45,604 nucleotides of DNA from a virus (Duplodnaviria; Caudoviricetes). A program made the translations under genes and the position numbers. The stretch spans positions 1 to 45,604 of IMG/VR virus record IMGVR_UViG_3300037755_000274; one strand, written 5' to 3'. A model generated the notes under the pieces. The model had not been told where the DNA came from, did no database searches, and saw only the letters and a list, made by a program, of their open reading frames with translations. Positions 2,439-42,533 of the stretch are shown piece by piece. The number at the start of each line of letters is the position of its first letter. Position 1 is the first letter of the stretch.

Positions 2439-2902
2439 ACTCGTTACCCATGCAAGGAAGCGGCAATCAGTCGGCGTCCGCTTCCAGTTTTTCACGGCTG
2501 CAAAAGCTGATGATCAAGCGGGGAGAGATGATCGAAAAGAAGGCGGACTTGCTGCGCGGCCATCAGCCAACGGCGGTCATCGAACGAAAGCTGATCGCGG
2601 TCACTGCCGAGATCATAGCGGAGGAAACAAGGTTGGAGGAGGAAAAAGTGCGATTGAAAGAATGGGATAGGCGCATCGCGCCGAAGCTGCAAGACCTTGA
2701 GTATTGCGGCAACACTATTGCGCGACACGCCAGACATATCGAGGCCACCATCAGGAACCTGGACGCCCGCCCGGCCTGGGAAACCAAGGCGCGGGAAAGT
2801 CTCGGACAGGCCGAGATCGAGCTTCGAACGGCGCTTGCCGTGGTTCAAATGGCACAGCGCCGGTACGACGCAATGCAGGTCATCGCGGAAGCAGCGGAGT
2901 AG
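2435..2902 (+). CDS. Hypothetical coiled-coil protein
   Basis: GTGA overlap; helical charged composition. Confidence 0.65.
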   Translation: MNSLPMQGSGNQSASASSFSRLQKLMIKRGEMIEKKADLLRGHQPTAVIERKLIAVTAEIIAEETRLEEEKVRLKEWDRRIAPKLQDLEYCGNTIARHARHIEATIRNLDARPAWETKARESLGQAEIELRTALAVVQMAQRRYDAMQVIAEAAE

Positions 2903-2907
2903 TAACA

Positions 2908-3675
2908 ATGTCAGTAGCCATCGCGTCAATCGGACACAACAGTCCGCCGGATACGATATCGGCGGCGCATGACACCATGCACGCATTGTCCGATTGGATG
3001 AAAGAACGCCCCGAGATTTCCAGCGAAGATGACGCCCGTGAAGCAAAGCGGTTGCTGGACCGGGCCACATCATGCGCAGACGAATTGGAAGCCGAGCGCA
3101 TCAAGCTTGTAAAGCCGCTTAACGAGCAGGTCGATACAATCAACTCACGCTATAAGGCCATTCACAACACGGACAAGAAAAGGCCGGCCATCCTCGACAA
3201 GATCGTTGCCGAGTTGAAAGACCGCCTTTCGTGTTTTCTGAGAGCCGAGGAAGCACGGCGGGAAGCCGTGGCAGAACAGAAACGCCTTGCAGCCGAGGAG
3301 GCCGAACGCGCGGCGCGCGAAGCCGAAGCCAAAGAGCAAGAGGCGATTGCAAACGCCAAGGCCGGCGAGCTTGGCGTTGACGTGACGCAAGTGGTGGTCG
3401 AAGCCGACAGCCGGTTTACAGAGTTCAAGAAAGCCAATCGAGAGGCCGCTCTAGCCGAACGTGAATCCCATGTCCGTATCGGCGGCGGCTGGAAGCGGTC
3501 TGCATCGCTGCGCGACAAGGAAACGCTGGTACTCGACAGCTACAGCAAGGCGATAACCGCGATAGGCCCACATCAGAAGATCGAAGAAGCCATTCTCTCC
3601 GCAGCCAGGGAATACCGAAAGAAGCATGGCGTGCTTCCGGCGGGTGTATCGGCTGCAATCACTCGACAAGTCTAG
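2908..3675 (+). CDS. Coiled-coil phage protein of the recombination module
   Basis: GGAG RBS; IGHNSPP N-terminus; Ala/Glu-rich coiled coil. Confidence 0.7.
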   Translation: MSVAIASIGHNSPPDTISAAHDTMHALSDWMKERPEISSEDDAREAKRLLDRATSCADELEAERIKLVKPLNEQVDTINSRYKAIHNTDKKRPAILDKIVAELKDRLSCFLRAEEARREAVAEQKRLAAEEAERAAREAEAKEQEAIANAKAGELGVDVTQVVVEADSRFTEFKKANREAALAERESHVRIGGGWKRSASLRDKETLVLDSYSKAITAIGPHQKIEEAILSAAREYRKKHGVLPAGVSAAITRQV

Positions 3676-3690
3676 CACAAGGATAAGCAC

Positions 3691-4077
3691 ATGAAAGTCT
3701 CGGAAGTGTTCCCCTCGAAATACATCGCCGCTGCCGATCTTAATAATCAGAACGTCCGCGTCACAATTTCTCGGGTCGAAATCGAGAAGATCGGGGACGA
3801 TACGAAGCCGGTCATCTATTTCAAGGGCAAGCAAAAGGGCCTCGTCTGCAACAAGACCAACAGCAAAACCATCGCCCAGATTTACGGCGACGAAACAGAC
3901 GATTGGGCCGGTGGCGAGCTGATCCTGTTCCCGATCATGACGGACTATCAGGGCAAGCCCGTGGAAGCCGTCCGCGTTCGTGCACCGCAGCCGAAGGACA
4001 ATCCGAAGCAGCAAGCACAACAGCCGCCGCCGCGCGAGACCGCAGAAACCGGCCTCGACGACTCCATACCTTTTTAG
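3691..4077 (+). CDS. Putative ssDNA-binding protein
   Basis: FPSKYIAAADL start; acidic DDSIPF C-terminal tail typical of SSBs. Confidence 0.7.
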   Translation: MKVSEVFPSKYIAAADLNNQNVRVTISRVEIEKIGDDTKPVIYFKGKQKGLVCNKTNSKTIAQIYGDETDDWAGGELILFPIMTDYQGKPVEAVRVRAPQPKDNPKQQAQQPPPRETAETGLDDSIPF

Positions 4078-4712: not shown

Positions 4713-5044
4713 AATTCCGCAATCCTCGCCAGCACCATGACGGCCACCTGGGGTTCATTCGCGGGTTGCCATGCTTGGTCTGTCTCGACAACACGGCCAC
4801 GGAAGCTGCTCACATACGCATGACCGATCTAAGGGCTGCAAAGAAAAATCCTGGGCTCGGCGCAAAGCCGCATGATTGGTGGACTGTTCCACTTTGCAAC
4901 CGTTGCCACCGTGAGCAGCACGAAATGAGCGAATCGGAATTCTGGGACACGAAAATGATCGACCCGATTTTCGTGGCAATGGCGCTTTGGATCAACACTG
5001 GAGATCACGAGTCTGGCGAGATCATCATCAGAGCGCAGCACTAA
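4709..5044 (+). CDS. DUF968/Ref-like HNH-type nuclease
   Basis: HLGFIRGLPCLVC...EAAH...KPHDWWTVPLCNRCHREQH. Confidence 0.75.
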   Translation: MKFRNPRQHHDGHLGFIRGLPCLVCLDNTATEAAHIRMTDLRAAKKNPGLGAKPHDWWTVPLCNRCHREQHEMSESEFWDTKMIDPIFVAMALWINTGDHESGEIIIRAQH

Positions 5045-5060
5045 TGACAGATCACCAAAC

Positions 5061-5606
5061 ATGAAACTCGGATATGCAGACCCCCCTTACATTGGATGCG
5101 CGCACTTGTACCGCGATCAGCCGGACTATGCCGGTGAGGTCGATCACGCCGCGCTGATCGACAGGCTGGATTCCGAATTTGACGGGTGGGTTCTACATGC
5201 CGCCGCCACGGCACAAAGCATGGCCGTACTTGGCCCTCTGGTTGAGACGACCGCCGCCCGATGGTGTTCATGGCGCAAGGGCTTCGCCGCGTTTAAGCGC
5301 AATGTCCCCGTCGCCTATGCGTGGGAGCCGGTCATCATCAGAGCCGCTCGCAAGCCCGTGGTCAGCAAGCGGCTAGTCATGCGGGACTGGATTGACACCG
5401 ACATTCAGGAGTCAATCACGCTCAAGCGCGGCCTGACTGGCGCAAAGCCGGAGGCGGTATGCCATTGGGCGTTTGAGCTGCTCGGGGCAAGACCAGAGGA
5501 TGAATTGTATGACTTGTTCCCGGGCACAGGCGCGGTGACGCGAGCATGGGAGACATGGAAGGGAAAATTCACACTACCGCCGTTCGAACTGACGGCGGTG
5601 GAGTGA
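5061..5606 (+). CDS. Putative amino (N6A/N4C) DNA methyltransferase
   Basis: Catalytic DPPY near the N-terminus; SAM-binding DLFPGTG near the C-terminus (beta-type order). Confidence 0.75.
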   Translation: MKLGYADPPYIGCAHLYRDQPDYAGEVDHAALIDRLDSEFDGWVLHAAATAQSMAVLGPLVETTAARWCSWRKGFAAFKRNVPVAYAWEPVIIRAARKPVVSKRLVMRDWIDTDIQESITLKRGLTGAKPEAVCHWAFELLGARPEDELYDLFPGTGAVTRAWETWKGKFTLPPFELTAVE

Positions 5607-5645
5607 ACGCCGCTAACGACTGATCAACATAAGCCGGAGGACACA

Positions 5646-5876
5646 ATGAAACTCTGCGATCTCGACGAAGCGGTTACGCTCATAAACTACCGCAAGAACT
5701 GTGAAGAGCTGCGCCGCTGCGCCGAGTCCGGCTTTATAGAATTGCGATTCACCGGCTGCTCGACTCCAGAATCGCACATCTCACTCGATTGTGTCCGTGA
5801 GGCGGTGAAAAAGGAGTGCGACCGGGTGATAGCCGAATATGAGGCAAAGCTAAACAGCTTGGGCGTCGAGGTATGA
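5646..5876 (+). CDS. Hypothetical protein (cassette-like)
   Basis: GGAGG RBS; bounded by junction sites. Confidence 0.7.
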   Translation: MKLCDLDEAVTLINYRKNCEELRRCAESGFIELRFTGCSTPESHISLDCVREAVKKECDRVIAEYEAKLNSLGVEV

Positions 5877-5915
5877 TAACGCCCGATGACAATCGTACTC
5901 TAGAGGAGCACCCCG

Positions 5916-6314
5916 ATGAGCAACCGCACTATCAAACAAACCTCAGCCCTTGCCGATCTGCGCATAGCGCACGAGGCACAGATCGAAGCCCTGACCGCGC
6001 CGGGGCTGACCGATGAGGAACGCGTGATCCGGTTCGGGGAAGCGGCTGGCTTTGGCGCAGGCGCCATAACGCTTGCCTTGGCGCGCCTCCGCTATGAAAG
6101 CCCATCCAATGTCGTGTGGCTCTTCGGACGATACGACCGCAGCCTATTCGGTGATCTTCCGGGTTGCCAGTGCCCTGTCATTGAGAACGATGTGGGCCGC
6201 GCCTCCTACCCCGGCATTCCATCTCTCATCCCTCTTGTCTGGCAGCCCGACCGTGCCACGCTGGAGTGCTTCGCCCGTGTGCAGCAAGAAACGAGATTTC
6301 CGAGCGCACGATGA
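5916..6314 (+). CDS. Hypothetical protein (cassette-like)
   Basis: GAGGAG RBS; bounded by junction sites. Confidence 0.7.
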   Translation: MSNRTIKQTSALADLRIAHEAQIEALTAPGLTDEERVIRFGEAAGFGAGAITLALARLRYESPSNVVWLFGRYDRSLFGDLPGCQCPVIENDVGRASYPGIPSLIPLVWQPDRATLECFARVQQETRFPSAR

Positions 6315-6344
6315 TGACAGCCCATTAGTAAAACCGAGGATGCA

Positions 6345-6626
6345 ATGAGCCACAAAGGCAGGTGTTTCCGAGATCGGCGCAAAACGCGGGCGCGCAAGAT
6401 GCGACAGGCAGCGCAGCGCAGGCGTGTCGCCCTGATTAAACGGGCTCTGGAGACAAGGGCCGTTTTATCGGAACCGGCCGCGCAACGCATGTCGGACGAA
6501 TCCCTCGCGACTGCGATCAAATACAAGCGACCGATTAAGGTATTGGACCTTGGCCTGACAACCGGCGTCGGACTGGCGGCTTTAGCTGGAGCTGCTTTGT
6601 TGGTGCGCGATCACAGACAACGATAG
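6345..6626 (+). CDS. Basic hypothetical protein with hydrophobic C-terminus
   Basis: GAGG RBS; bounded by junction sites. Confidence 0.6.
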   Translation: MSHKGRCFRDRRKTRARKMRQAAQRRRVALIKRALETRAVLSEPAAQRMSDESLATAIKYKRPIKVLDLGLTTGVGLAALAGAALLVRDHRQR

Positions 6627-6666
6627 TGACCAGCCCTGACCATCCAACTATTTGCCAGAGGACAAG

Positions 6667-6879
6667 ATGAGCGAGCCGAAATCTGGACAACCCTGGGCTT
6701 ACATCGCCCATAAAGACGGCAAGTGGGCTGGCGTTGCCGCTGCCAATATGCCGGCAAAAGACCTACGCAAATTCCTTGGCGACTTTGCCGCAGATGGGTT
6801 TGCCATCATGACGGTGTTTGACCGCAACGAATACGAGCGCGCTATCAGATCAATGGAAATGTGGCGTCCGGCGAGATGA
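6667..6879 (+). CDS. Hypothetical protein (cassette-like)
   Basis: GAGG RBS, ATG at 6667. Confidence 0.7.
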   Translation: MSEPKSGQPWAYIAHKDGKWAGVAAANMPAKDLRKFLGDFAADGFAIMTVFDRNEYERAIRSMEMWRPAR

Positions 6880-6926
6880 GATCGGCATTAACAGTTGATG
6901 ACCACCGACCAACATTGGAGCAAACG

Positions 6927-7109
6927 ATGAAACTCACATCAAAGATAGTGCCTTATTCGAGTGTCGTCGGCTCATCCGTCGCGCTCCACAACGAGAGCGG
7001 TCAGGTGGTGGCCATTGTAATGGTGACCGTTCCCAGCCCATCTTTCCCTTACAAGGAAACGGCCGCTCCAATCATTGAAAAGATCGCCAAGGCATTCGAC
7101 GGAGAGTGA
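6927..7109 (+). CDS. Hypothetical protein
   Basis: GGAG RBS, ATG at 6927. Confidence 0.7.
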   Translation: MKLTSKIVPYSSVVGSSVALHNESGQVVAIVMVTVPSPSFPYKETAAPIIEKIAKAFDGE

Positions 7110-7110
7110 C

Positions 7111-7368
7111 ATGCAGATGCGTCTCGCGTTTCGAGAAGAAGGCAATTTCTGGTCCGCCTACGTCGCACAAATGGGCACGATGGACGGCTCATTCTTGCTG
7201 GGCTCAATCATGTTCGGCGTGGTCGCTAACAACCCAGACCGAAAAGCGGCCTTTATGGGTTTGATGAAGGATGCTTTCGCCGACGCCGTGCAAGACGTTA
7301 CGGGCAAGCGGCCAGAGGAATGGGACGAAAGGTCAGCGCCAGAGTCTGAGCGCGCCGGCCACGGATGA
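7111..7368 (+). CDS. Hypothetical protein
   Basis: GGAG RBS; RLAFREEGNFWSAY...APESERAGH. Confidence 0.7.
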   Translation: MQMRLAFREEGNFWSAYVAQMGTMDGSFLLGSIMFGVVANNPDRKAAFMGLMKDAFADAVQDVTGKRPEEWDERSAPESERAGHG

Positions 7369-7391
7369 TAATGAGACATGACCAAACAACA

Positions 7392-7898
7392 ATGAAAATA
7401 TTGGATATCTCAGCAGGCCGGCGCGGAGTGTGGTTCGACAAGAACCACAGGGACGCAATCTATGTTGATATCAGGCCAGAGGTTAATCCTACGATTGTGG
7501 CCGACGCGCGGGCGTTGCCGGCGGAAGTCGGAAATGAATTTAACCTGATCGTGTTCGATCCACCACACAAGAACAACGGTGCCTCTGGCAAGATGGCACA
7601 CAACTACGGCCACTGGACCCATGCGCAAATTCAAAAAATTGTATGCGAGTGCGCCAAGGAAGCCTTTCGAGTCGCAAGGTCTGATGCCCTGATGGCATTC
7701 AAGTGGAATGACCACAGCATAAAGCTAGACAGCGCCCTTGCGTGGTTGGCTCCCTGGTGGGAGCCGCTATTCGGTCACGGCGTATCGGGGCAGCATCGTC
7801 ATGGATCGATGACCTCTTGGGTGATGTTGCGCCGGCGAGAAATGGAAATCAAAACCTTCACCAGCGCGGAAGGTGTCGAGGACAGACTGTTCGCGTGA
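7392..7898 (+). CDS. SAM-dependent methyltransferase (probably a DNA amino-MTase)
   Basis: Motif I ILDISAGRR followed by FDPPH. Confidence 0.8.
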   Translation: MKILDISAGRRGVWFDKNHRDAIYVDIRPEVNPTIVADARALPAEVGNEFNLIVFDPPHKNNGASGKMAHNYGHWTHAQIQKIVCECAKEAFRVARSDALMAFKWNDHSIKLDSALAWLAPWWEPLFGHGVSGQHRHGSMTSWVMLRRREMEIKTFTSAEGVEDRLFA

Positions 7899-7964
7899 AC
7901 GATGATAACGAGACGTCACCATAAAGAAACGGCAAGAGAGTGTTCAGCTAAAGAGGAGAACCTA

Positions 7965-8057
7965 ATGCTATTCGAACACCTGCTTGGAATGATCGCACCC
8001 GTGATCTTCGCTGCGGCGGGGCTCGTTCCGCTATGGCTGCCGGGCGTTTGCAACTGA
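7965..8057 (+). CDS. Small hydrophobic peptide (30 aa)
   Basis: GAGGAG RBS; MLFEHLLGMIAPVIFAAAGLVPLWLPGVCN. Confidence 0.45.
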   Translation: MLFEHLLGMIAPVIFAAAGLVPLWLPGVCN

Positions 8058-8067
8058 GGGGATTGTC

Positions 8068-8412
8068 ATGGCAACGGATGAAGAGATTAAAGTCGCCGTC
8101 AATGCCGCATTCGCCGGGTCGCGGCCGGTCGGATGTGGCGATGGCGGAACGTTCGTCACGCCGCCGCTAACACCGGAACGAATCATCGCCGCCATCGAAG
8201 CCGTCGGTCAAATGCGCGCGCAATCGGAGCCCGTGAGTGACGCGGCGCGGGAGATGCTGGCGGCGCTGGAATTGTTTATTCGCGATCTCGAATATTACAT
8301 CGGCAACCCGTCCGCATGGGAAAACTACAGCGATGATGTTTCCGAGCTAATGCGCGGCGTACACACACTTGCCCTCCCCGCCATCGCCAAGGCAAAAGAG
8401 CCGCACGTCTGA
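8068..8412 (+). CDS. Hypothetical protein with EMLAALE...AIAKA module
   Basis: GAGGGG RBS. Confidence 0.7.
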   Translation: MATDEEIKVAVNAAFAGSRPVGCGDGGTFVTPPLTPERIIAAIEAVGQMRAQSEPVSDAAREMLAALELFIRDLEYYIGNPSAWENYSDDVSELMRGVHTLALPAIAKAKEPHV

Positions 8413-8435
8413 AAAGACACCAGGGAGAATACGTT

Positions 8436-8714
8436 ATGAACGAAGCGATGCAACGTTGCCCGACCTGCAATATCGATTGGTCGCTCAATCCTCCCGTCAA
8501 ATGCCACGGCAGCAATCACTTCCGCTGCATCGAATGCAAGGCGGTTTATTCGGGAGAGATGTTGGCGGTGCCTGAGATGCTGGCGGCGCTGGAAAATATG
8601 CTCGTTGCCGAAGGGTATCAGGCACAAGAAGAAGCCGAACAAATAGCGCGTGCCGCCATCGCCAAGGCAACGGGTCAGCTCGAAACTTACGACGCTAAAG
8701 AGCCGTTAGCATAA
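8436..8714 (+). CDS. Zn-ribbon protein with EMLAALE...ARAAIAKATG module
   Basis: CPTC...CIEC; GGAG RBS. Confidence 0.7.
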   Translation: MNEAMQRCPTCNIDWSLNPPVKCHGSNHFRCIECKAVYSGEMLAVPEMLAALENMLVAEGYQAQEEAEQIARAAIAKATGQLETYDAKEPLA

Positions 8715-8726
8715 GGGGAGAAGGAT

Positions 8727-8903
8727 ATGGCGGACCCAGATGAGCTTGCCGAGAGGATTGCGAGGAAGGCCGCCGATGCGCTTGATCCTCTCCGGCTTGA
8801 AATGGCCATTAAAAAATGGCCGGCAGAGTTTCGCGTGATCATGTGGGAAGCGGTTGCCAGTGTAGCGATGCAACAAGCCGCAGAATCAAAACAAGAGAAA
8901 TAA
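8727..8903 (+). CDS. Hypothetical protein (58 aa)
   Basis: GGGGAG RBS; MADPDELAERIARKAADALDPLRLEM... Confidence 0.65.
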   Translation: MADPDELAERIARKAADALDPLRLEMAIKKWPAEFRVIMWEAVASVAMQQAAESKQEK

Positions 8904-8965
8904 GAACACCACCACGAACCCGATCTAACCACTAACGCGCCGTTAGCATAAGAGGAGAAAACAAC

Positions 8966-9193
8966 ATGGTGATTTGCTCTAGACCGGAATGTCAAACGAC
9001 AGCCGGCTGCCAATGTAATAACCCCATGACCAGGGGCGGAGCCCTGCGGCTAAGAGGCGATCATGCCCCACACAAAGTCATGACGCCGGAAGAATACGAA
9101 CGCGAGATCATCGTCGGCTGGCACGAGGTGTGTCGCAACGTTGACGGCATGGGCAGTGTCGGTATTCGGTATTTGGGCGCGACACAGAAATAG
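8966..9193 (+). CDS. Hypothetical protein with N-terminal Cys cluster
   Basis: GAGGAG RBS; ICSRPECQTTAGCQC. Confidence 0.65.
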   Translation: MVICSRPECQTTAGCQCNNPMTRGGALRLRGDHAPHKVMTPEEYEREIIVGWHEVCRNVDGMGSVGIRYLGATQK

Positions 9194-9203
9194 GAGCACC
9201 ACC

Positions 9204-9317
9204 ATGGACCCGTTCTGGCTAGGAGTTCTTGTAACCCTCGCAATCGAGGGCGGTCTGTTTGTCGGGGGTGGTTTGTTCTGCTTCGGATTTTTCCTTGTGA
9301 TGGTCAGGCTCGGGTGA
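9204..9317 (+). CDS. Small membrane protein (37 aa)
   Basis: GGAG RBS; MDPFWLGVLVTLAIEGGLFVGGGLFCFGFFLVMVRLG. Confidence 0.55.
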   Translation: MDPFWLGVLVTLAIEGGLFVGGGLFCFGFFLVMVRLG

Positions 9318-9329
9318 GCGGCGGATACG

Positions 9330-9620
9330 ATGACCGACGTGTCGGACCATAAGGAGCGCAAACCCCGGACCAAGAAGCGGGGCGGCCTCTTTGTGAACGA
9401 CGCGGAGTTGATCGAGCTGTTCAACGTGCCTGAGAAGACCGCGCGGGAAGCCATCAACGAGCTGGACCGCGACCCCAGGCGCTCCAAGTTTCCACAGCCC
9501 GTGCCCCTATGGGGCAATCGCCGGTACTGGCCGGCGGTAAAAGACTGGCTGGATCAACAGTATAGGACCGGCCAGCCAGGGGCGCAGCTTGTAACATTTC
9601 GTGAACGGAAAAGTGCGTAG
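9330..9620 (+). CDS. Probable excisionase / winged-helix recombination directionality factor
   Basis: LFVNDAELIELFNV...FPQPVPLWGNRRYWPAVKDWLD is AlpA/Xis-like; lies upstream of the integrase. Confidence 0.7.
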   Translation: MTDVSDHKERKPRTKKRGGLFVNDAELIELFNVPEKTAREAINELDRDPRRSKFPQPVPLWGNRRYWPAVKDWLDQQYRTGQPGAQLVTFRERKSA

Positions 9621-9699
9621 GCCATATTGACCTAGGCCAGATTGGCCGGTATGGTCGGATCATCAGCAAGGGCAATGATGCCCGGTGATGGAGATCAGG

Positions 9700-9888
9700 A
9701 TGAAATCGCGCACTCATACCGTGATGGTCACAGTGACTTTCGACAAGCCGTGCACGCGCCGGATTGCGCTACGGGAATTGAAGGACACTATTCACGGCAA
9801 CGAATATTGCACTCAATTCGAGGACAGTGAGCCGGGGGAATACAGGGTCCGCACGGTCAAGATGGCCCCTGAGAAGGTAGCGGCATGA
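9700..9888 (+). CDS. Hypothetical protein
   Basis: GGAG RBS. Confidence 0.65.
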   Translation: MKSRTHTVMVTVTFDKPCTRRIALRELKDTIHGNEYCTQFEDSEPGEYRVRTVKMAPEKVAA

Positions 9889-10100
9889 CCGGCCCCCAAT
9901 ACCGTGCCGCCCTCGAAACGCTTGGCCAGACTCAGGTCGGGGCGGCGCGGCTGTTCAAGATAGGCGAGCGCACGTCGCGCCGCTGGGCAGAGGAAGGTGT
10001 AACCGGGACGGCTGAGACTTTGATTAAGTTGATGCTTGCCGGCCTAGTCACCGTGAAAGATATCGAGAAGATCAATGCTCGCAAGTCCGCCAAAAATTGA
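9885..10100 (+). CDS. Small HTH (XRE-like) DNA-binding protein
   Basis: LGQTQVGAARLFKIGERTSRRW. Confidence 0.75.
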   Translation: MTGPQYRAALETLGQTQVGAARLFKIGERTSRRWAEEGVTGTAETLIKLMLAGLVTVKDIEKINARKSAKN

Positions 10101-11346
10101 CGACGCGCCCGGCCTGAAATGGCGGCGGCGGCGCACCGGATGGTCTGCCCGCTGGCAGGCCCGCGACGACTTGATCCAGCGCGGCGTGCTGCCGAAGCAG
10201 GTCAATATCTATTTCTGGCAGGGCGAAGAACTTACCAATGCCGCCATCAATCTCATTCGTGAGCGCTGCCAGCGACTCCAGAGCGATATGCTGGTCTGGG
10301 GACGTGGTGGGGTGAATACGACGGTCCAATACGACGGCACGGTGCAGGGTTTGATTGACTGCTACATGACGGACGAACTGTCGTCCTACCGCGAGGTCCG
10401 CTACTTCACCCGCAAGCACTACAATTCCCTCTGCCGCGTGCTGGCCCGGACGGAATACGAGGACGACGACGGCGTGAACTTGACCGTTGGCGAGACGCCC
10501 ATCGCAAATATCAAAGCGCGCCACTTGAAGCGGTGGCACCGAACCTGGACCGATGGCGGCCTTAAAATACCGATGGGCTATGCCGTCATTACGATGCTGC
10601 GCAATCTTGTCGGGTTCGGCGTGACCATTTTGGAGGACGATCAGTGCATCCGGCTATCCGCGATCCTGCATCAGCTTCGCTTCCCCATGGGCAAGTCGCG
10701 CAATTCCGCGCTGACCGCCGAGCAGGCCGCGATGATCCGCGATCTGGCGCGCACCAAGGGATACCCGTCAATCGCGCTGGCGCAGGCCATTCAATTCGAG
10801 TTCACATGGCGGCAGAAAGACGTAATTGGTGAGTGGGTGCCGATCCCGGAAAACGGGAGTTCGGATATCACCAACGGCCATGACAAGTGGTTGCGCGGGC
10901 TGCGCTGGAATGAGATCGACGAAAGCATGGTCGTCCACCATATCACCAGCAAGCGCCAGAAGCTCAGCGAGCCGGATATCCGCTACGCGCCGATGGTGCT
11001 GCAAGAGATGATGCTGACCTTCGGAACCGTGGAGCGCGCCGGGCTGCCGGCGAGCGGGGCCGTCATTGTCTGTGAGACAACCGGCCTGCCCTGGGAGCCG
11101 CAGTCGTTTCGAAATATGTGGCGGGCGCTTGCGACCGAGTGCGGCATCCCCACGACGGTGCGGAACATGGACACCAGGGCCGGCGCGATCACCGAGGCGT
11201 TCGCCGTCGATGCGCCTAGCGATATGATCCGCAAGACGGCCACGCACAGCAATATCAGCATGACCGGCAAATACAGCCGGGACGACGCCAAGGCGACCGC
11301 CGAAGTAATGCAATTGCGGGCCGCGTCACGGTCGAACAAACCGTGA
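10075..11346 (+). CDS. int: Tyrosine recombinase / phage integrase
   Basis: Catalytic R in FEFTWRQKD; RNMDTRAGAITEA in place of HxLR; ATHS; GKYSR tyrosine. Confidence 0.9.
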   Translation: MLASPPKIDDAPGLKWRRRRTGWSARWQARDDLIQRGVLPKQVNIYFWQGEELTNAAINLIRERCQRLQSDMLVWGRGGVNTTVQYDGTVQGLIDCYMTDELSSYREVRYFTRKHYNSLCRVLARTEYEDDDGVNLTVGETPIANIKARHLKRWHRTWTDGGLKIPMGYAVITMLRNLVGFGVTILEDDQCIRLSAILHQLRFPMGKSRNSALTAEQAAMIRDLARTKGYPSIALAQAIQFEFTWRQKDVIGEWVPIPENGSSDITNGHDKWLRGLRWNEIDESMVVHHITSKRQKLSEPDIRYAPMVLQEMMLTFGTVERAGLPASGAVIVCETTGLPWEPQSFRNMWRALATECGIPTTVRNMDTRAGAITEAFAVDAPSDMIRKTATHSNISMTGKYSRDDAKATAEVMQLRAASRSNKP

Positions 11347-11520
11347 AGAAACGCGGAGCGAACGAGACTAGAACAGGACAGGTGGCGCTTGGGTGGCGCG
11401 GGCATCTAAACCATTGGAATCTTTAGGGCCAATGTTAAGAGTCTGCAAACCGCAACATCAATGATTTCAAGGCCAGCGCCACCTAGAGAACGGTAAATGA
11501 ACAGTCAAGGAACGGCAGGA
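11347..11520. other. Candidate attP region
   Basis: Non-coding region directly after int; AT-richer centre (11405-11470) flanked on both sides by GAAC-containing repeats at about 11-bp spacing, like arm-type sites. Confidence 0.55.
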
Positions 11521-11766
11521 GACGGTTATGGACAAGGCAAAGACTGAGGCTGAAAGCTATAGCGCGGACCGTTTTGGCATTCAAAACCACCTCGGTGGCA
11601 TTTGGACGCCGGAAACATTCAAATCGGCAGAAGACGCGCAAGCTTTCCTGGATAATTCGAAGAAAAATTGGAAGGGGAATGGTCTGGATCGCCACAAGGT
11701 CATCCCGGTGAGCGTCACCATTTTGTCGCGAGCTGAGAACGGGCAGTAAACAGTCAAGGAACGGCA
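11486..11766 (+). repeat. 32-bp direct repeat (28/32 identical) at 11486-11517 and 11735-11766
   Basis: GAGAACGG-N6-AACAGTCAAGGAACGGCA brackets ORF 11528-11749. Confidence 0.9.
11528..11749 (+). CDS. Hypothetical protein
   Basis: GGAG RBS. Confidence 0.7.
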   Translation: MDKAKTEAESYSADRFGIQNHLGGIWTPETFKSAEDAQAFLDNSKKNWKGNGLDRHKVIPVSVTILSRAENGQ

Positions 11767-11802
11767 TGACGCGGCAGAATGTGCCGCTTGGAGGAGAGGA
11801 AG

Positions 11803-12090
11803 ATGGCGCAATGGCAGTCAGAACAGCAGCACGACGCTCCAGGCAATCCCCTGCAAGAATGGCGTATCGTCGACTTGGATAAGCATGACGTACAGGGCGA
11901 GGTGGTTGCCACAGTGTATCTGAAAGCCGCCGCACCGCTGATCGCCGCCGCGCCGAAGATGCTGGCGGCGCTTGAAACTTTAATCCGCTGGCATGACGCC
12001 GTCCCTGCGAAAGAGTTTATTCCGGGACCAATACATACGGTTATCGACCGCGCCCGCGCCGCCATCGCTGATGCGACCGAACTACAGTGA
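11803..12090 (+). CDS. Hypothetical protein with LIAAAPKMLAALE...RARAAIA module
   Basis: GGAGGAG RBS. Confidence 0.75.
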   Translation: MAQWQSEQQHDAPGNPLQEWRIVDLDKHDVQGEVVATVYLKAAAPLIAAAPKMLAALETLIRWHDAVPAKEFIPGPIHTVIDRARAAIADATELQ

Positions 12091-12114
12091 CACCGCAGAC
12101 AGGAAGGACGGCAA

Positions 12115-12333
12115 ATGAGCGAGTGGCAACCGATAGAGACGGCTCCGACCAGCCCCGAAACCGACCCTCCGCTGATTATGCTTTGGGTCGATGACGGCGG
12201 AATGAAGGGCAACGGGTGCCATGCTTTTGGACGTTGCTACCGTAGCGCCGATGGCACTGTGCGCGGCGTCCCTATCGGATTCCACGGATTCACATGCACC
12301 AAATGGCAGCCCCTACCAGACCCGCCGAAGTGA
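12115..12333 (+). CDS. DUF551-like phage protein
   Basis: MSEWQPIETAP...TKWQPLPDPP. Confidence 0.8.
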   Translation: MSEWQPIETAPTSPETDPPLIMLWVDDGGMKGNGCHAFGRCYRSADGTVRGVPIGFHGFTCTKWQPLPDPPK

Positions 12334-12370
12334 AGTTGGCGAATGATGATACCGCATTAGTGGGGACCGA

Positions 12371-12895
12371 ATGGCGCGAAAGACGAAAGCGCAAGAGCAG
12401 GCCGAAAGGGATGCCGCGTGGCAGGCCGAGCAGGAGCGCGTTCGCAAACTTGGCGACCTATTTTATGCCTTACCGGCAGGAGCACAAAAGATAGCCCTAC
12501 AGAAAGCCATGAGAGACAGAATAATAGACCTCTACAATGAATGCAGGCTTGAGCAGGGCGATGCGATACTAGAGTTCTTACCGAACGAGTTTGCACGCAA
12601 ATTGCTGGATTGGTACTTCCCAGATGACGATGCGCAAACATCACAGCCGCCGCCACCGACGCCAATCGAAGATGAAGCTACGGAGTCGCGGAAAGTTCAA
12701 GATCAACCACAATCACCCATCAGGGCGGACGGGGATGGTCCAAGCGAAGCGGACGCCGAAATCGTCGCCATCGCCAAAGACCTAGTGGCGCTTTGGCAGA
12801 ATCCAAATATCAAGGGACTACCGCGCGCCGAACGAAATGCCGCAATCGAGGAAACACGAAACCGCTTGATCGCAGCGGTGGGTATTAATGGATAG
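12371..12895 (+). CDS. Hypothetical protein
   Basis: GGGGA RBS. Confidence 0.7.
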   Translation: MARKTKAQEQAERDAAWQAEQERVRKLGDLFYALPAGAQKIALQKAMRDRIIDLYNECRLEQGDAILEFLPNEFARKLLDWYFPDDDAQTSQPPPPTPIEDEATESRKVQDQPQSPIRADGDGPSEADAEIVAIAKDLVALWQNPNIKGLPRAERNAAIEETRNRLIAAVGING

Positions 12896-12903
12896 AAAAT
12901 ATC

Positions 12904-13086
12904 ATGCACGATATAGACCTGACCGTAGTTGACGCGCTTCGCTTCGTGAAAGTGTCAATTACACACGATTGGCCATCTGGCCTAGAGCCGGCCGGTAATG
13001 GCTATTTGACAGGGGCAAGCTGCGCAATGCTTGTCTTGGAATTGAGGCGCGGTGGATACGAAATAGTTAAGAGCACTAACGGGTAG
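12904..13086 (+). CDS. Hypothetical protein
   Basis: ORF fills the gap and ends inside a junction site. Confidence 0.55.
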   Translation: MHDIDLTVVDALRFVKVSITHDWPSGLEPAGNGYLTGASCAMLVLELRRGGYEIVKSTNG

Positions 13087-13094
13087 TGACCAAA

Positions 13095-13364
13095 ATGAAA
13101 ATGCCATCCAAAACAGCAATGGATGTTGTGAATAGATTTCCCTGGTCAGCAAACGTTCGCCTCGACGGGGGGCTGGTTGGGCAGGAATATTTGGTGGCCG
13201 AAGCAATTGATTTAGCTCTTGCCGCCGAGCGCGAGGCTTGCGCGCAGATATGCGAGCAAGCGGCCCGCAGCCTGATTATCGGACGCAGGCGCACCAACCA
13301 AATTGATCGACACACGGCGGACGTGTTGATGGACAAGGCTCGCAAGATTCGCGAGCGGTACTAA
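13095..13364 (+). CDS. Hypothetical protein (AEREACAQIC motif)
   Basis: Motif common in small phage proteins; bounded by junction sites. Confidence 0.7.
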   Translation: MKMPSKTAMDVVNRFPWSANVRLDGGLVGQEYLVAEAIDLALAAEREACAQICEQAARSLIIGRRRTNQIDRHTADVLMDKARKIRERY

Positions 13365-13380
13365 GGAACGGTGACCACCG

Positions 13381-13575
13381 ATGAAATTGGAAATTCCAGA
13401 TCAGGCCCTTGTTGCGCGGTGCGGAGGGGACTGGGGTAATGCCACGTCTACCGACCTTGGCGCTATCGTGAAGCAATACCTCTATTCAAACCCACCCGTA
13501 TCGACGCGCAAGATGCAGTTGGGGCTATTCCTGGTTGACGTTCTAGAGAGTCATCTGGACCGTGGCGGCGATTGA
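13381..13575 (+). CDS. Hypothetical protein
   Basis: Bounded by junction sites. Confidence 0.65.
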   Translation: MKLEIPDQALVARCGGDWGNATSTDLGAIVKQYLYSNPPVSTRKMQLGLFLVDVLESHLDRGGD

Positions 13576-13610
13576 TGTGTGCTCACCATATAACTTTGGA
13601 GGATAGGCCG

Positions 13611-13997
13611 ATGGGATCATTGATTGAACGCCTGCGTATCGGATGCCCGTATCGGCACATCGAAGATGGCTCGGAAAATATCGAGCCGGACGTTAAGGTC
13701 GCTAACGAAGTCATGTTCGAGGCGGCAGACGAGATCGAGCGGCTGCGGGCTGAGCGCGATGAGCTATTCGAAGCCAACGGTGCCATAGCGAACACTATTG
13801 GAGCGGATGCATTGCGACTGCGAAAGGCATTGGCGTTTTATGCGCGCCCGATAGCCTACCAGGGCGACAACCAGCACAATAACGGCCAAGACCCATTCAC
13901 GCCTGCTGACGAACCGTATATTAAAAGCATAGGACGCGATGGCGGAGCCATAGCCCGCGAAGCACTCGCGGCAATCAAAGAGCACGATGGTGATTAA
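13611..13997 (+). CDS. Hypothetical protein (EAADEIERLR...LAFYA motif)
   Basis: GGAGG RBS. Confidence 0.75.
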   Translation: MGSLIERLRIGCPYRHIEDGSENIEPDVKVANEVMFEAADEIERLRAERDELFEANGAIANTIGADALRLRKALAFYARPIAYQGDNQHNNGQDPFTPADEPYIKSIGRDGGAIAREALAAIKEHDGD

Positions 13998-14030
13998 TGA
14001 TGACTATCGTACTCTAAGGGACAGCCAAAG

Positions 14031-14237
14031 ATGAAGATCACGGAAACTGGATTTGCTGCCATCAATATTGAAACTAAACCGCCTCACATCATGGTGTGGT
14101 CCATCTGCGGGACAGCTCGTGGCGTTCGAAAAGAGGTTGCCGACAACTGGCCGCCGCGCGACGGCGAACGGGATGGATGGAAAGCAGCGAAGCGCGATGG
14201 TGTGCGTGTTCGTAAGATCAAAATAGAGACCGTTTGA
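14031..14237 (+). CDS. Hypothetical protein
   Basis: AGGG RBS after a junction site. Confidence 0.7.
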   Translation: MKITETGFAAINIETKPPHIMVWSICGTARGVRKEVADNWPPRDGERDGWKAAKRDGVRVRKIKIETV

Positions 14238-14312
14238 ATTGTCGGCCGGCGAGGCTGGCCCACGAATTTACGTGATTGATGATCACCATCACACTCTAGA
14301 GGAACAGTCCTG

Positions 14313-14492
14313 ATGCCAGAAGTAAGTGCAGAGATGTTGCGGCACTGGCAAGAGATTGTTGATCAGGCGATGGGATGCATTCGAGGCGAGACGCCAGAGG
14401 ATTGCACCTTCGGCGAGGCCGAGGATGACACGTTTGAAAAATTGCGCGCCGTCGATGCTCAAATCTCCGCCGCCTTAGCCCGAAAGGAATAG
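14313..14492 (+). CDS. Acidic hypothetical protein (59 aa)
   Basis: GAGG RBS; MPEVSAEMLRHWQEIVDQ... Confidence 0.6.
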   Translation: MPEVSAEMLRHWQEIVDQAMGCIRGETPEDCTFGEAEDDTFEKLRAVDAQISAALARKE

Positions 14493-14621
14493 GCCGATGC
14501 CATAGCAGTTGCAGACTCCGCCGGGTAATAATCCGGGCAGTACGGAGCGAGCAAGGGGAACCGGCCGACGACCCGTCACTGCCGGCGAGGCCGGTTCCCC
14601 ACGAACCTAAAGGAATAGTCA

Positions 14622-14768
14622 ATGCCTCGATACACCGTCATCATTGAGAAAGGGTGGTCGTACATCGTAGGGCCTGACGGCTACCGCGAAGGCCCAATTC
14701 GCTATCAATGGGAGGCTCAGGAATGGGCCGATGAGATGAACCTGGAGGCTGCGCAGAGCGCAGAATAG
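14622..14768 (+). CDS. Hypothetical protein (48 aa)
   Basis: AAGGA RBS; MPRYTVIIEKGWSYIVGPDG... Confidence 0.6.
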   Translation: MPRYTVIIEKGWSYIVGPDGYREGPIRYQWEAQEWADEMNLEAAQSAE

Positions 14769-14796
14769 GCCCGCAAAATATTGATGAGCAGAGAAT

Positions 14797-15060
14797 ATGA
14801 ACGAGCGCAAATGCCCCCACAGGAATATAGTTGATTGTCCGCTCTATATCGGAATGCACATTGTTGGCGGGCATAGCTGTTGGTCTGATCGTTTGGAGGA
14901 AGGGCTTTGCGCGGTTGATCTCGGTGCCAACTATGACGGGCTAATTGAGGCGATGCGCGTTAAGCACCCGCGCGAGGTTGCAGAATGCGAATGGCGATCT
15001 GCACAGCGCGAAAGCCAGGAGCAGCGGAAGCGAAACATGCTCCTTGCTGGCATACACTAA
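14797..15060 (+). CDS. Hypothetical Cys/His protein
   Basis: CPHRNIVDCPLY. Confidence 0.7.
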   Translation: MNERKCPHRNIVDCPLYIGMHIVGGHSCWSDRLEEGLCAVDLGANYDGLIEAMRVKHPREVAECEWRSAQRESQEQRKRNMLLAGIH

Positions 15061-15088
15061 TAAGAGATTGACATAATAGGAGACCGAT

Positions 15089-15292
15089 TTGGACAGCCAA
15101 GACAAGGTCGTGTTCTTAGCGTTCGACAATCCGAACGCAGCGGCGGTCTGCACGATCACATTTATCGGATGCAAGAATTGCAAAAACAAGACCTTCACAT
15201 TACTGAAGGATGATCTTGACAAGTTCACCCTGGTCCGATGCGCTGCTTGCGGCAGCGACATAGGCCGGATGGGGTGGGCCGATGAATGCTAA
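15089..15292 (+). CDS. Zn-ribbon protein
   Basis: CKNC...CAAC; TTG start with GGAG RBS. Confidence 0.7.
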   Translation: MDSQDKVVFLAFDNPNAAAVCTITFIGCKNCKNKTFTLLKDDLDKFTLVRCAACGSDIGRMGWADEC

Positions 15293-15328
15293 TAAGCGAT
15301 TAACATAAGCCAAAGAGGAATAGGCCTA

Positions 15329-15502
15329 ATGGAAATAGAACCAGGAACTGAGATGGACCGCTGCCCGCGATGTGGTGGCTGGATCAGCCTCGGGCATGCC
15401 CTGGGGTCTGAATGTCGCGAGGGTTTACGCGAGGAAATAAAAACCCGCTCTCGGGCTGGTCTTGAGCCGGCACCTTGGCCGAAGTGCGGGGACGCAGAAT
15501 AG
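15329..15502 (+). CDS. Small CxxC protein (57 aa)
   Basis: GAGGA RBS; CPRCGG. Confidence 0.6.
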   Translation: MEIEPGTEMDRCPRCGGWISLGHALGSECREGLREEIKTRSRAGLEPAPWPKCGDAE

Positions 15503-15511
15503 TCATGGGCA

Positions 15512-15820
15512 ATGAACATCATGCGATATTTTAGACTTCCGGGAATGACGCGACGCCAAGCCTTGGGGCTATGGTGGTTCAATAATGTCAAACGCCACTA
15601 TCAGCACTGGCGGTTTAAACGGAGGTTCGGAGCCGAATGGGTAGCCAGCGGGCGCGACATAAAACGAATCCCAAAGTGCGGTGCGTTCTCACCTGAGACT
15701 TGGGCTTGGGCTCTCGAACAGGCAAAGAAGATAGAGAACAGAGGTTCGCCGCGCCAGGGAAAGCCGTTTTCTGAATTTCGCAAAGAGGTCGAGCGCCGGC
15801 AGAACCGCGTTAATAGATGA
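15512..15820 (+). CDS. Basic hypothetical protein
   Basis: ORF ends inside a junction site. Confidence 0.55.
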   Translation: MNIMRYFRLPGMTRRQALGLWWFNNVKRHYQHWRFKRRFGAEWVASGRDIKRIPKCGAFSPETWAWALEQAKKIENRGSPRQGKPFSEFRKEVERRQNRVNR

Positions 15821-15840
15821 TTAGCATAATAGGAGCTAGC

Positions 15841-16305
15841 GTGGCCAAATTTTCAAAAACGGCGTTATGGATTCGCGAGCATCTTGATTACACAGAGGAC
15901 GATTGCCTGATTTGGCCGTTCTTTCGTGACGCCAATGGGTATGGACGAGTAAAAGCCGGTACTACTATTGGGTGGGCTCACAGGGTAATATGCGAACTAA
16001 GAAATGGACCTGCCCCGCTAGGGCACGAGGCCGCACATAGCTGCGGTAATGGTCGCCGTGGCTGCGTAAATCCACGGCACCTTTCTTGGAAAACACGCCG
16101 AGAAAATCAGCTTGACCGCCGCCGTCACGGCACAAAAGCGGCCGGCGCCTACCGTTGGTCTCGCTCGAAACTTAAGATAGATCAAGTTCGCGAGATCAGG
16201 CGGCTGCGAGGTCTGGAAACCCAGAGGGCTATAGCTGATCGGTTTGGCGTCACAGACGCGACAATCCGAGATATCTATAGCGGCAAGAGTTGGCGAAACG
16301 CATAA
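15841..16305 (+). CDS. HNH endonuclease with C-terminal HTH
   Basis: CLIWP...GYG...AHR...AAHSCGNG...CVNPRHLSW...EN; TQRAIADRFGVT. Confidence 0.85.
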   Translation: MAKFSKTALWIREHLDYTEDDCLIWPFFRDANGYGRVKAGTTIGWAHRVICELRNGPAPLGHEAAHSCGNGRRGCVNPRHLSWKTRRENQLDRRRHGTKAAGAYRWSRSKLKIDQVREIRRLRGLETQRAIADRFGVTDATIRDIYSGKSWRNA

Positions 16306-16364
16306 TATTTTCAAGAGATTAGCATCTAACTCCAGAGGAGAATCCCAATGCTCCGCGCATGCGC

Positions 16365-16850
16365 CTACAAGTGGCGACCTGGAAAATGCAAAAAGAAACA
16401 GCGGAAGCGCCGACCACGCACGAAAAAACCCGCCGTGACAATCATCGGCGGGTCTCGTTTGAAAGTCACCACGGCGACCTGAGTCAACGTCCCAGGCGCG
16501 AAGCAAAAGTCGGTGCGGTTGCCTCCCGTTTCGAGATAGAACCACACGGCATGTCCGTTCGGATTGGGGTTTGTCAGCACCATGTAGGCCGGCAACGTGT
16601 GGTCGCCTTCTTTCAGGTGCAGCGTGACCGATCCGTCGCCGTTGAGGGTGTAGCCGCCATCGTAGCGATGCCCGTCGCTTTCGTCGCAGCACCATTGCCC
16701 TTGTGCGTTGCGCTGCGATTTGTACCAAGCTTGAATCTTCGGATCGGACTTGGCGTATTCAGGCTTCCACTTGGCCGCCGCACCACCCGCCGCGATCCAG
16801 GCCGCAAACGCAAGCCCGAGGATCGCGCCGACACAAAGAGGCGTGCGCAT
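16365..16850 (-). CDS. Secreted Cys-containing phage protein
   Basis: Signal-peptide-like N-terminus; WYKS...CCDESDG...CFAPG; the C-terminal extent is doubtful. Confidence 0.65.
   Translation of the reverse strand: MRTPLCVGAILGLAFAAWIAAGGAAAKWKPEYAKSDPKIQAWYKSQRNAQGQWCCDESDGHRYDGGYTLNGDGSVTLHLKEGDHTLPAYMVLTNPNPNGHAVWFYLETGGNRTDFCFAPGTLTQVAVVTFKRDPPMIVTAGFFVRGRRFRCFFLHFPGRHL
16423..16460 (-). terminator. Rho-independent terminator where the late and early arms converge
   Basis: ACCCGCCG/CGGCGGGT stem with an A6 tract on +, i.e. a U-tract on -. Confidence 0.6.
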
Positions 16851-41505: not shown

Positions 41506-42048
41506 TCAGCCGCGCGGCTCTCCAAACTTTGGAAACTCTTTGCGCGCATACGACACCGCCGCAAACGCCCAATCCATGACCCCCGCACGATCCGACATGG
41601 TCTGTCTCAGGTGATTTTCCACGGGCTTGTATTTGCGCGCTGCATGGAAAACACACGTGTGATCCCTATTCCCGAATTGGCGGCCGATAAACGGCAGGCT
41701 TTTCGTGGTCAGCATTCGCGCCAGGAGCATCGCGATTTGTCGGTAATCGCAGATTTGCCGCTCCTTGCATTCCGAGATAAGTTCGCTCACTTGTAAATTT
41801 GCAAGAACGCAAACGGCTTCCTGGATTTCGTTTATTGTCGGCTTTTGTCGCTCCACAAACTGCACCGACATGGGTTTGCACCTCGCGCATTTCCGGTCGT
41901 CGTAAGGTGCTTGTGTCGGCATCTTCGGTGTTCGCTTCCAGCCGTAGCCCTTGACCCCGGCTGATTTTCCCCGCCGCAGGTCTATCCCCAAGTCAGTGAC
42001 AGGTGACGCTCGAAATATTCTCTGTTCGCGAACTTCCATGATGCTCAT
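41506..42048 (-). CDS. DnaA C-terminal (domain IV) HTH-like protein
   Basis: RQIAMLLARMLTTKSLPFIGRQFGNRDHTCVFHA. Confidence 0.85.
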   Translation of the reverse strand: MSIMEVREQRIFRASPVTDLGIDLRRGKSAGVKGYGWKRTPKMPTQAPYDDRKCARCKPMSVQFVERQKPTINEIQEAVCVLANLQVSELISECKERQICDYRQIAMLLARMLTTKSLPFIGRQFGNRDHTCVFHAARKYKPVENHLRQTMSDRAGVMDWAFAAVSYARKEFPKFGEPRG

Positions 42049-42533
42049 ACGTCACCCCATATTTCTGACAGCATTCCGCGCGTTCGTTTGACCGGCCTTT
42101 CAGGAATGCCGTTGTAACAAAGCCGATGGTGATAGGCGCAATAGCTTCCGCATTTAATGGGCTGTCCGCAAAACAGATAAGGCGCTGCGGTCCCTTGCGG
42201 AAAGCGGCACTGGTTCGGCCTTAAATCGAAAAACTCAATGCCGAGGAAATCAGACAAATCCTCTGGAGCAATAATGGGAGCGGATTTCTTTTTTTGGGTC
42301 AGCCTGTTTAGTAATCCAGAATCCGAGCTGCGTTTCTTGTGCTCAACTGTTTCGCCGTTTTTCGTGCCCGGTGGCCCAGCGCTTTCAAGCCCCATGCGGC
42401 GCTTCTTGCCAATTATTGAGTTGCGTGAAAATCGCGATCCCGTCCGCTGATTGATTTCTTGCGCAATCCAGGCGTTTGATCCCGTCTTGGTCAGCTCGCG
42501 GAGTAGATCAATGCGCTCGGTGGTCCAGGTCAT
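42045..42533 (-). CDS. gcrA: GcrA-like cell-cycle regulator
   Basis: MTWTTERIDLLREL...SRNSIIGKKRRMGL...CRFP...FCG...SYCAYH. Confidence 0.85.
   Translation of the reverse strand: MTWTTERIDLLRELTKTGSNAWIAQEINQRTGSRFSRNSIIGKKRRMGLESAGPPGTKNGETVEHKKRSSDSGLLNRLTQKKKSAPIIAPEDLSDFLGIEFFDLRPNQCRFPQGTAAPYLFCGQPIKCGSYCAYHHRLCYNGIPERPVKRTRGMLSEIWGDV

Follow-up and report, generated by a model that had tools for sequence, protein, structure and literature searches.

The stretch of DNA analysed here, called the window below, is the virus record IMGVR_UViG_3300037755_000274 in its full length of 45,604 nucleotides, and the subject is a series of short two-armed sites lying at the junctions of its accessory genes on both sides of a tyrosine integrase gene. 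The record represents a complete 45.6-kb phage with direct terminal repeats and a lambdoid layout: the plus strand carries recombination and accessory genes from 0 to 16.3 kb, structural and lysis genes are on the minus strand, and repressor and Cro-like genes occupy 44.3–45.0 kb. Since the closest portal matches are Rhizobium phages (55%) and relatives of the integrase were found in Hyphomicrobiales genomes, the host likely belongs to that order. No near DNA relative of the window was present in the phage collection searched, where one gene only found a match, and scans with single proteins or long patterns gave no close relatives.

Junction sites of the accessory genes

All sites are read on the plus strand and are designated here by the five central letters between their arms. 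The series begins directly after a DUF968 gene with GACAG (5041–5056) and continues upstream of the integrase gene with GACTG (5613–5628), GCCCG (5876–5891), AGCCC (6314–6329), CAGCC (6626–6641), AGTTG (6888–6903), the twin GAGAC sites (7368–7383 and 7905–7920), which flank a DNA methyltransferase gene, GAGCC (8695–8710, within the end of an open reading frame, ORF) and GCGCC (8932–8947). The gene between GACAG and GACTG (5061–5606, plus strand) encodes a protein of 181 aa with a DPPY motif near its start and no library match, which, judged by this motif, is presumably methyltransferase-like. Downstream of the integrase gene a half site with the centre ACCGC (12087–12097) is followed by its twin (12346–12361) and then by GGGTA (13076–13091), GAACG (13361–13376), GTGTG (13572–13587), TAATG (13990–14005), TGATG (14272–14287), the degenerate GAGCA (14781–14796), AAGAG (15057–15072), AAGCG (15289–15304), GGGCA (15502–15517, left arm TCAT) and AGATG (15810–15825), which precedes an HNH endonuclease gene (15817–16305). 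The last member, a half site with the centre AAGAG at 16308–16323, has the right arm only, and the same 13 letters close the homologous HNH gene of locus L025.

Twenty of these sites had been listed in a sequence-only reading of the window, and every one reads as claimed at its position; the sites at 15502 and 14781 and the half site at 12087 are additional to that list. The pattern TRAYN5RTBAVY matched the window 26 times, compared with 7.3 ± 3.1 in shuffled sequences (n = 100, none reaching 26), so that the motif exceeds chance. When scored with a leave-one-out profile, 16 of 19 sites exceeded all positions on both strands of the region 16,400–45,604, and those at 12346, 13572 and 14272 failed to do so. 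Junctions were counted with a fixed 16-letter rule (TRAY N5 RTBAVYA, at most one mismatch), which was built from the same sites, on gene calls of a simple caller supplemented with six ORFs. A site was found at 10 of 15 junctions in the accessory block 5.0–9.3 kb and at 11 of 16 in the region 11.5–16.3 kb, i.e. at 21 of 31 accessory junctions versus 2 of 55 others (0/12 core early, 0/4 around the excisionase and integrase genes, 2/39 late or replication), in agreement with the sequence-only reading, which by eye did not find the motif at junctions of core recombination genes or of the late operon.

The motif is also more than the stop codon of the preceding gene. As had been pointed out, it lies past the stop at 5613, 6888, 7905, 8932, 12346 and 14272, and the ORF reads through the left arm at 8695, 13076, 13990 and 15810; the left TRA serves as a stop codon at five sites, and at five it stands directly 3′ of an overlapping ATGA stop. 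The arms extend over eight letters, ATG-N-TRAY and RTBA-V-CAT. A reading of the sites as RNA hairpins was considered and dropped, as the arms show no co-variation: complementary arm pairs numbered 8, 12 and 5 versus 6.4, 8.6 and 4.8 expected (p = 0.27, 0.065 and 0.56). Therefore the junction site is a double-stranded dyad composed of TRA, a seven-letter centre Y-N5-R and TBA, with outer ATG and CAT. Near-identical spacers of neighbouring sites occurred in the window six times against 1.2 expected (p = 0.0004). Initially they were taken for target duplications, and this explanation is now weakened, because GACAG and GACTG turned out to be separately inherited.

Ordered centres and the genes between them

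A scan with one site gave 37 loci, 11 of them with the site at like junctions in phages of 53–61% guanine plus cytosine. Eight of these phages were new, and together with nine integrase-bearing loci they make up the 17 phages of group B, where some 20 centres share a single order. With no preset list, 21 centres recurred in at least four phages, covering 145 of 246 TAAY sites at junctions, and their pairwise order agreed in 676 and disagreed in 24 of 700 comparisons, while control 5-mers gave 58:41 and 21:10. Thus the integron-like shuffling suggested in the sequence-only reading is not borne out: with a spacer of its own at every site, the order is kept. A centre with its place in this order will be called an address, and the interval between consecutive addresses a slot. 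Slots mostly measure 170–500 bp and carry a different gene in nearly every phage; the numbers of distinct contents were 7/7, 8/8, 7/10, 7/7, 7/8, 11/12 and 8/8, short proteins being possibly over-split by BLASTP. A few gene families sit in different slots in different phages of group B, so genes can change their address.

Among 502 classified same-address pairs 484 share neither flank, four share both, two the left only and 12 the right only. Identity stops 1–2 letters past the seven-letter centre in both left-only pairs and starts 0–3 letters 5′ of the left arm in six of the 12 right-only pairs, the remaining ones differing in the centre (four) or in the right arm (two). L174 and L175 have in common an identical block of 611 bp, which extends from the first centre letter of one site to three letters past the next. 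The proposal that the sites behave as cassette boundaries of a recombination type is therefore upheld, since genes between the same sites differ and spacers are shared across unrelated flanks. The accompanying expectation that exchange breakpoints fall within the sites had a mixed outcome: it suits the few pairs sharing one flank, and no such enrichment was seen over all 179 sharp homology boundaries among loci of the integrase family. In group B conservation is dyad-symmetric and gapped, with C-3 in 114 of 134 sites, G+15 in 120, A+12 in 119 and variable letters between, and the left TAA is a stop codon in 71 of 134 only.

As judged from the order of its centres, the window itself belongs to this ordered-address system. 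Its succession GACAG, GACTG, GCCCG is repeated in L027, and the first two members in L022, with other genes between them: GACAG is followed there by genes for 233 aa (L027) and 65 aa (L022), both unlike the 181-aa gene of the window. GACAG was found at junctions of L022, L027 and L175, always upstream of the integrase gene. AAGAG and AAGCG recur downstream of this gene in other phages, the former at a like position in L174 and the latter in L080 and L184. Identical centres at non-orthologous junctions of different phages formed 16 pairs versus 3.1 expected (maximum 9 in 500 shuffles). Same-centre pairs lay on the same side of the integrase gene in 19 of 19 cases (11 of 11 classes, p = 3e-5), with a median offset of 0.7 kb versus about 3.7 kb.

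Enrichment of the motif follows the integrase family. In 99 loci of this family a spacer of five letters was registered at 60 of 2003 junctions, against 12–33 for spacers 2–10. It was not enriched in capsid relatives devoid of the integrase family of the window (8 of 1160 junctions versus 5–19) or elsewhere in 12 genomes of the integrase family (5 of 427 versus 1–14), and distant integrase relatives in host genomes gave no motif enrichment (16 versus 7–16). An array as dense as that of the window was found neither by a profile scan of 81 loci nor by a pattern search of 50 records. One address pattern gave two matches in 401 host-family genomes, versus seven for the control, a scan with a 14-base pattern returned mostly AT-rich chance matches, and a pattern from the end of the HNH gene hit 17 loci, a single relevant one being already in the set.

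Several features of the slots deserve mention by themselves. Leader strings of 9–11 letters, belonging to two families and located 5′ of ribosome sites, are common to unrelated genes (5896, 14010, 14292 and 16328; second family 14487, 14763 and 15318), which suggests common ancestry of the leaders. The small genes 8068–8412, 8436–8714 and 11779–12090 have in common C-terminal stretches of 16–21 near-identical bases, and two of them match phrog_1273. An exact 18-bp direct repeat (11500–11517 and 11749–11766), not matching the junction motif, flanks the first gene past the phage attachment site. Contigs of the source run break at 15803–15829, i.e. at the 15810 site, and at 16740–16769 near the end of the late operon; no forms with a skipped cassette were present among these contigs, which drop rare variants and come from a run that may itself have given rise to the window. 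Outside the accessory region, the minus strand encodes a GcrA-like protein (42045–42533) and a protein with the DnaA C-terminal helix-turn-helix (HTH) domain by Pfam (41506–42048), both resembling cell-cycle regulators of the host.

The integrase, its attachment core and armless relatives

The tyrosine integrase (10075–11346, plus strand) consists of 423 aa, with PF00589 as its sole Pfam-type match. Its catalytic residues R246, K271/K293, R368, H391 and Y400 are intact, and the N-terminal part resembles arm-binding domains (atlas features 0.95; a lead). The phage attachment site (attP, 11381–11483, plus strand) contains direct 8-bp arm repeats at 11381–11388 and 11392–11399 and an inverted copy at 11476–11483, with the core between them; two IHF-like sites, recognised by the consensus, presumably belong to it as well. 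Thus the window has the attributes of a lambda-type integrase, namely an arm-binding-like domain, the R-K-x-R-H-Y set and an attP with arm repeats, and the same arrangement of arm repeats and core was found in 33 loci of the family. Upstream lie a gene for a probable excisionase (9330–9620, plus strand), named from its position and having homologs upstream of the integrase gene in 64 integrase loci, and one for a small HTH-like protein (9885–10100, plus strand). Near the end of the excisionase gene there is a conserved element TAAC ATTTC GTGA (9592–9604) with a longer common context in L018, L035, L039, L074, L496 and L503, which may be a promoter or operator of the integrase gene rather than an address.

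The probable core of attP, TAAG AGTCT GCAA (11435–11450, plus strand), has the geometry of a junction site. To compare attP regions, 20 intervals of at most 86 letters were used and 13 longer ones left out. Nine of the 20 had a site of this geometry, displaced from the midpoint by +4 to +5, and the summed score was 10.8 versus −63.8 ± 17.7 for shuffles (0 of 2000). CTAAC GAGCC GTTAAC stands at the end of a prophage whose integrase is 45% identical, and the empty-site relative matches this end from two letters 5′ of TAAC onward (GC-TAAC-GAGCC-RTTA); the same GAGCC is the centre of the junction site at 8695. Based on the match of prophage end to empty site and on the fixed offset in attP, the integrase family evidently uses the junction-site geometry as its crossover core, and the tyrosine-recombinase geometry ascribed to the sites in the sequence-only reading is corroborated, as the attachment core of the family has the same form. 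In group B the ordered addresses include the attP core. The right half of this attP, with core and IHF-like site, also follows a gene in L555 (about 5992; L515), whose phage encodes an unrelated integrase of 345 aa.

The left arm of the window core (11436) fits the junction profile, being within the top 0.13% of 8-mers. A 464-letter contig of the source run (depth 3.2) shares 11436–11465 with the window and departs from the phage leftward, and its branching at 11436 can be read as an integration junction. The anticodon of tRNA-Lys was considered as a target of this attP and dropped, because the branch of the contig starts one letter too late. Among host loci, 15 of 17 close ones and none of seven distant ones retain the attachment site of the 45%-identical integrase. 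The mapped bacterial attachment site (attB; L180 11330–11350/L467, L468–L483, L487) is a conserved CtrA-box-like sequence 5′ of a host gene, which is presumably of PilZ type, library matches being weak. This integrase thus appears to target a promoter element and no tRNA gene. In five prophages a second attachment end was looked for and not detected.

The integrase-family gene gave no N-terminal match in 23 of 99 loci, a class with a few doubtful rows, such as L045, L076, L178 and L188. In most of these armless forms the protein begins with the core-binding domain, attP arms are missing and another gene follows directly; 20 of 22 aligned retain R, K, R, H and Y. Catalytically intact members of this kind sit inside accessory arrays with no attP, for instance in L012 (3414–4388) and L171–L175 (about 10000–11000). 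On a quick tree search they are scattered, one clade being sister to the integrase with the mapped attB, and apparently they arose several times. In L076 (about 2750–3800) the integrase frame begins with an excisionase-like stretch fused to the core-binding domain, which is deletion-like. Junction sites were registered beside armless forms at 23 of 508 junctions versus 32 of 1316 (p = 0.022, kinship uncorrected). Armless forms could also serve other ends, such as resolution of genome dimers.

Proposed addressed exchange, its alternatives and known systems

Taken together, each junction motif is a site of two arms around a seven-letter centre, which is specific to its position and keeps a fixed order among phages, and we lean, with restrained confidence, towards considering these sites core-only crossover sites of the integrase family. 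The enzyme would then swap a gene between two like-addressed sites, from phage to phage. Cleavage after TRA on each strand would create a 7-bp overlap Y-N5-R. In HK022 integrase such an overlap may be arbitrary provided that it is identical in both partners (excerpts of PMC7736782), and identity is needed by most tyrosine recombinases (excerpts of PMC2817482). This requirement would bar deletion or reshuffling inside one genome: since every position has its own overlap, sites of the same genome should be mostly incompatible, and two genomes should cross in register. Crossovers would thus take place only between two co-resident genomes, either of an infecting phage and a prophage or in co-infection, one crossover swapping everything beyond the site and two swapping a single slot. 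Such reactions might be performed by an armless form or, at a low rate, by the full-length integrase, possibly supplied in trans, and new addresses might arise by duplication of a neighbouring site followed by drift, as near-identical neighbours in the window would allow. The wider claim, that ordered orthogonal overlaps constitute a community-wide multi-address cassette exchange, by which temperate alphaproteobacterial phages differing in capsid, integrase and recombination genes swap single genes in register with the help of arm-shedding lysogeny integrases, has in our estimate an even chance of being right.

A number of observations weigh against addressed exchange by this enzyme family. 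The integrase of the window is full length, with an attP of the complete arm type, and HK022 cannot integrate in E. coli unless arms are present (excerpts of PMC7736782). None of the eight address-bearing phages found by DNA pattern has a full integrase-family gene, one containing a remnant and three another integrase; two of these phages are near-complete (98% and 100%) and gave no PF00589 match, and no protein family was common to all address-bearing phages. The enzyme would therefore often have to act in trans or be the host's own. Of 20 attP regions, 11 do not show a motif-like site at the offset common to the others, and in the window the right attP arm is off the junction profile (score −12.3, core −6.6). 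Distant members of the family integrate in tRNA genes, and the prophage with the best-matching attachment core has one junction site near its integrase gene. One-sided pairs are few, with ten letters shared by construction, and just five centres of the window were traced in other phages, as no close relative of it was found. Of the 179 sharp boundaries of homology between loci of the family, strict sites contain only four (controls 0–8), so most exchange in the family happens away from the sites.

Alternatively, the same addressed exchange might be catalysed by another tyrosine recombinase, for instance one encoded by the host, and the resemblance of the sites to the integrase core would be due to convergence or to a shared preference for CtrA-box-like DNA. 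Addresses do persist where the phage has a different integrase or lacks one and where capsid and recombination genes are different, and arm preferences differ (T/C-3 and A+15 in the window, C-3 and G+15 in group B) as different hosts would give. Nevertheless we hold this unlikely: enrichment tracks the integrase family and not capsid kinship, the attP cores and one attB have the junction geometry, armless active-type forms are present in the arrays, and the address pattern was no more frequent than its control in the host-family genomes. In addition, the dif consensus has a 6-bp centre, from which the seven-letter centre of the junction sites appears to differ, as do their arm bases.

Less probable still is that the sites are short homology linkers for general recombinases of phages, as in the boundary-sequence model (excerpts of PMC3029335), with no site-specific enzyme. 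It needs no common enzyme and accounts for both the fixed order and the shared centres; at some addresses the common stretch is longer and reaches past the ribosome site (95th percentile 21 letters), and most mosaic boundaries lie elsewhere. However, identity between otherwise unrelated flanks runs over a median of 12 letters, ten of them by construction, and an identity of 12 letters is short for single-strand annealing proteins. All addresses keep, moreover, to one gapped dyad frame equal to that of the integrase core, which homology alone would not require.

A dispersed operator or stoperator, bound by the HTH protein of 9885–10100, by host CtrA or by a recombinase-fold repressor like MrpR, is a distinctly improbable explanation. 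The sites are co-oriented, intergenic and adjacent to ribosome sites; TAA-N7-TTA has the spacing of the CtrA box TTAA-N7-TTAA (excerpts of PMC9437464), the attB found is a CtrA-box-like sequence in a host promoter region, and MrpR exemplifies a repressor of recombinase fold whose target is a phage element present in several copies (excerpts of PMC10516654). Yet just two of 21 sites depart from the CtrA box by no more than one mismatch, five by two and 14 by three or four. The HTH protein, proposed as a regulator in the sequence-only reading, has no link to site density, which is equal with and without it (15 of 492 versus 48 of 1718 junctions, p = 0.76). Sites are nearly absent from late and replication junctions, where stoperators also lie, sigma-70-like promoters show no excess (4 versus 7.3, a weak test for this host group), and armless forms, unlike MrpR, retain the catalytic tyrosine; nor does an operator give a reason for position-specific spacers across unrelated flanks.

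A true integron array, with IntI reordering cassettes at attI/attC-like sites, is scarcely credible in spite of the core consensus RYYYAAC and GTTRRRY contained in TAAC-N5-GTTA, as the order is fixed (676 of 700), the protein of 10075–11346 has no IntI match (NCBIfam, E 0.1), attC reactions of IntI need no spacer identity, which matters here, and 110-nt stretches at 21 sites revealed no attC-like fold (z averaging −0.9 and −0.5, with no value under −2.6), confirming that long attC hairpins, which in integrons measure 57–141 nt on the bottom strand, are absent. In its favour, minimal cassettes derived from attI exist (excerpts of PMC12901181). From the original idea of a cassette system operated by the phage integrase or a host recombinase, the boundary behaviour and the geometry of the integrase core have thus remained, and its integron sense and shuffling have fallen away.

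The proposed addressed exchange may be compared with several known systems. Mycobacteriophage stoperators and the SPBRE of SPbeta bound by MrpR also occur as many co-oriented intergenic copies (excerpts of PMC3029335 and PMC10516654). Stoperators are asymmetric 13-mers with one consensus throughout the genome (excerpts of PMC3029335), whereas the dyad described here is confined to accessory genes, has variable inherited centres and is accompanied by catalytically intact candidate enzymes. Boundary sequences of lambdoid phages and PeSL cassettes of T4 are likewise short repeats marking module exchange at gene boundaries, but they are longer, alike and homology-based, PeSL being a promoter plus a stem-loop (excerpts of PMC3029335 and PMC2839356); here we deal with a gapped dyad of 13–19 bp and a different centre at each position. 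Precise gene-by-gene boundaries of phages are a long-open question, and mosaicism is usually ascribed to illegitimate recombination and selection because boundary sequences are unseen at most junctions (excerpts of PMC3029335). With ordered boundary sites, a defined geometry and named candidates for the enzyme, a site-specific route can be tested directly. If it is real, phage mosaicism would have a dedicated enzymatic source at gene boundaries, and multiplex cassette exchange would gain a ready tool in an armless tyrosine recombinase that has some twenty natural overlaps orthogonal to one another.

Integrons and delta-attI cassettes resemble the arrays in having promoterless single genes, one orientation and an RYYYAAC/GTTRRRY-like core (excerpts of PMC12901181), while the attC hairpin, IntI and a single insertion point are not present here and the order is kept. 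The att cores of lambda and HK022 and engineered recombinase-mediated cassette exchange also combine inverted arms with a 7-bp overlap identical in partners; different overlaps make sites orthogonal, and the integrase of the window is of the same heterobivalent type with an arm-type attP (excerpts of PMC7736782). Unlike them, phages of the present kind have about 20 natural core-only sites per genome in a shared order, no flanking arm sites, and armless enzymes. In pdif modules of Acinetobacter plasmids (XerC/XerD) accessory genes are similarly bounded by simple sites with variable centres. These sites are of 11-6-11 composition, read by host XerCD, alternating in orientation and not known to have a fixed order; the junction sites differ from pdif in their 7-bp centre, single orientation, fixed addresses and phage setting, and enrichment of spacer class 5 alone (7-bp centre) does not suit a Xer site with its 11-bp arms and 6-bp centre. 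No natural ordered-address system was found in the literature searched, most subscription papers being outside the search. The novelty lies in ordered and shared addresses, with the pdif module as the nearest known kind; the armless enzymes are new as well, and so is the connection of junction sites with an attachment core that has been mapped.

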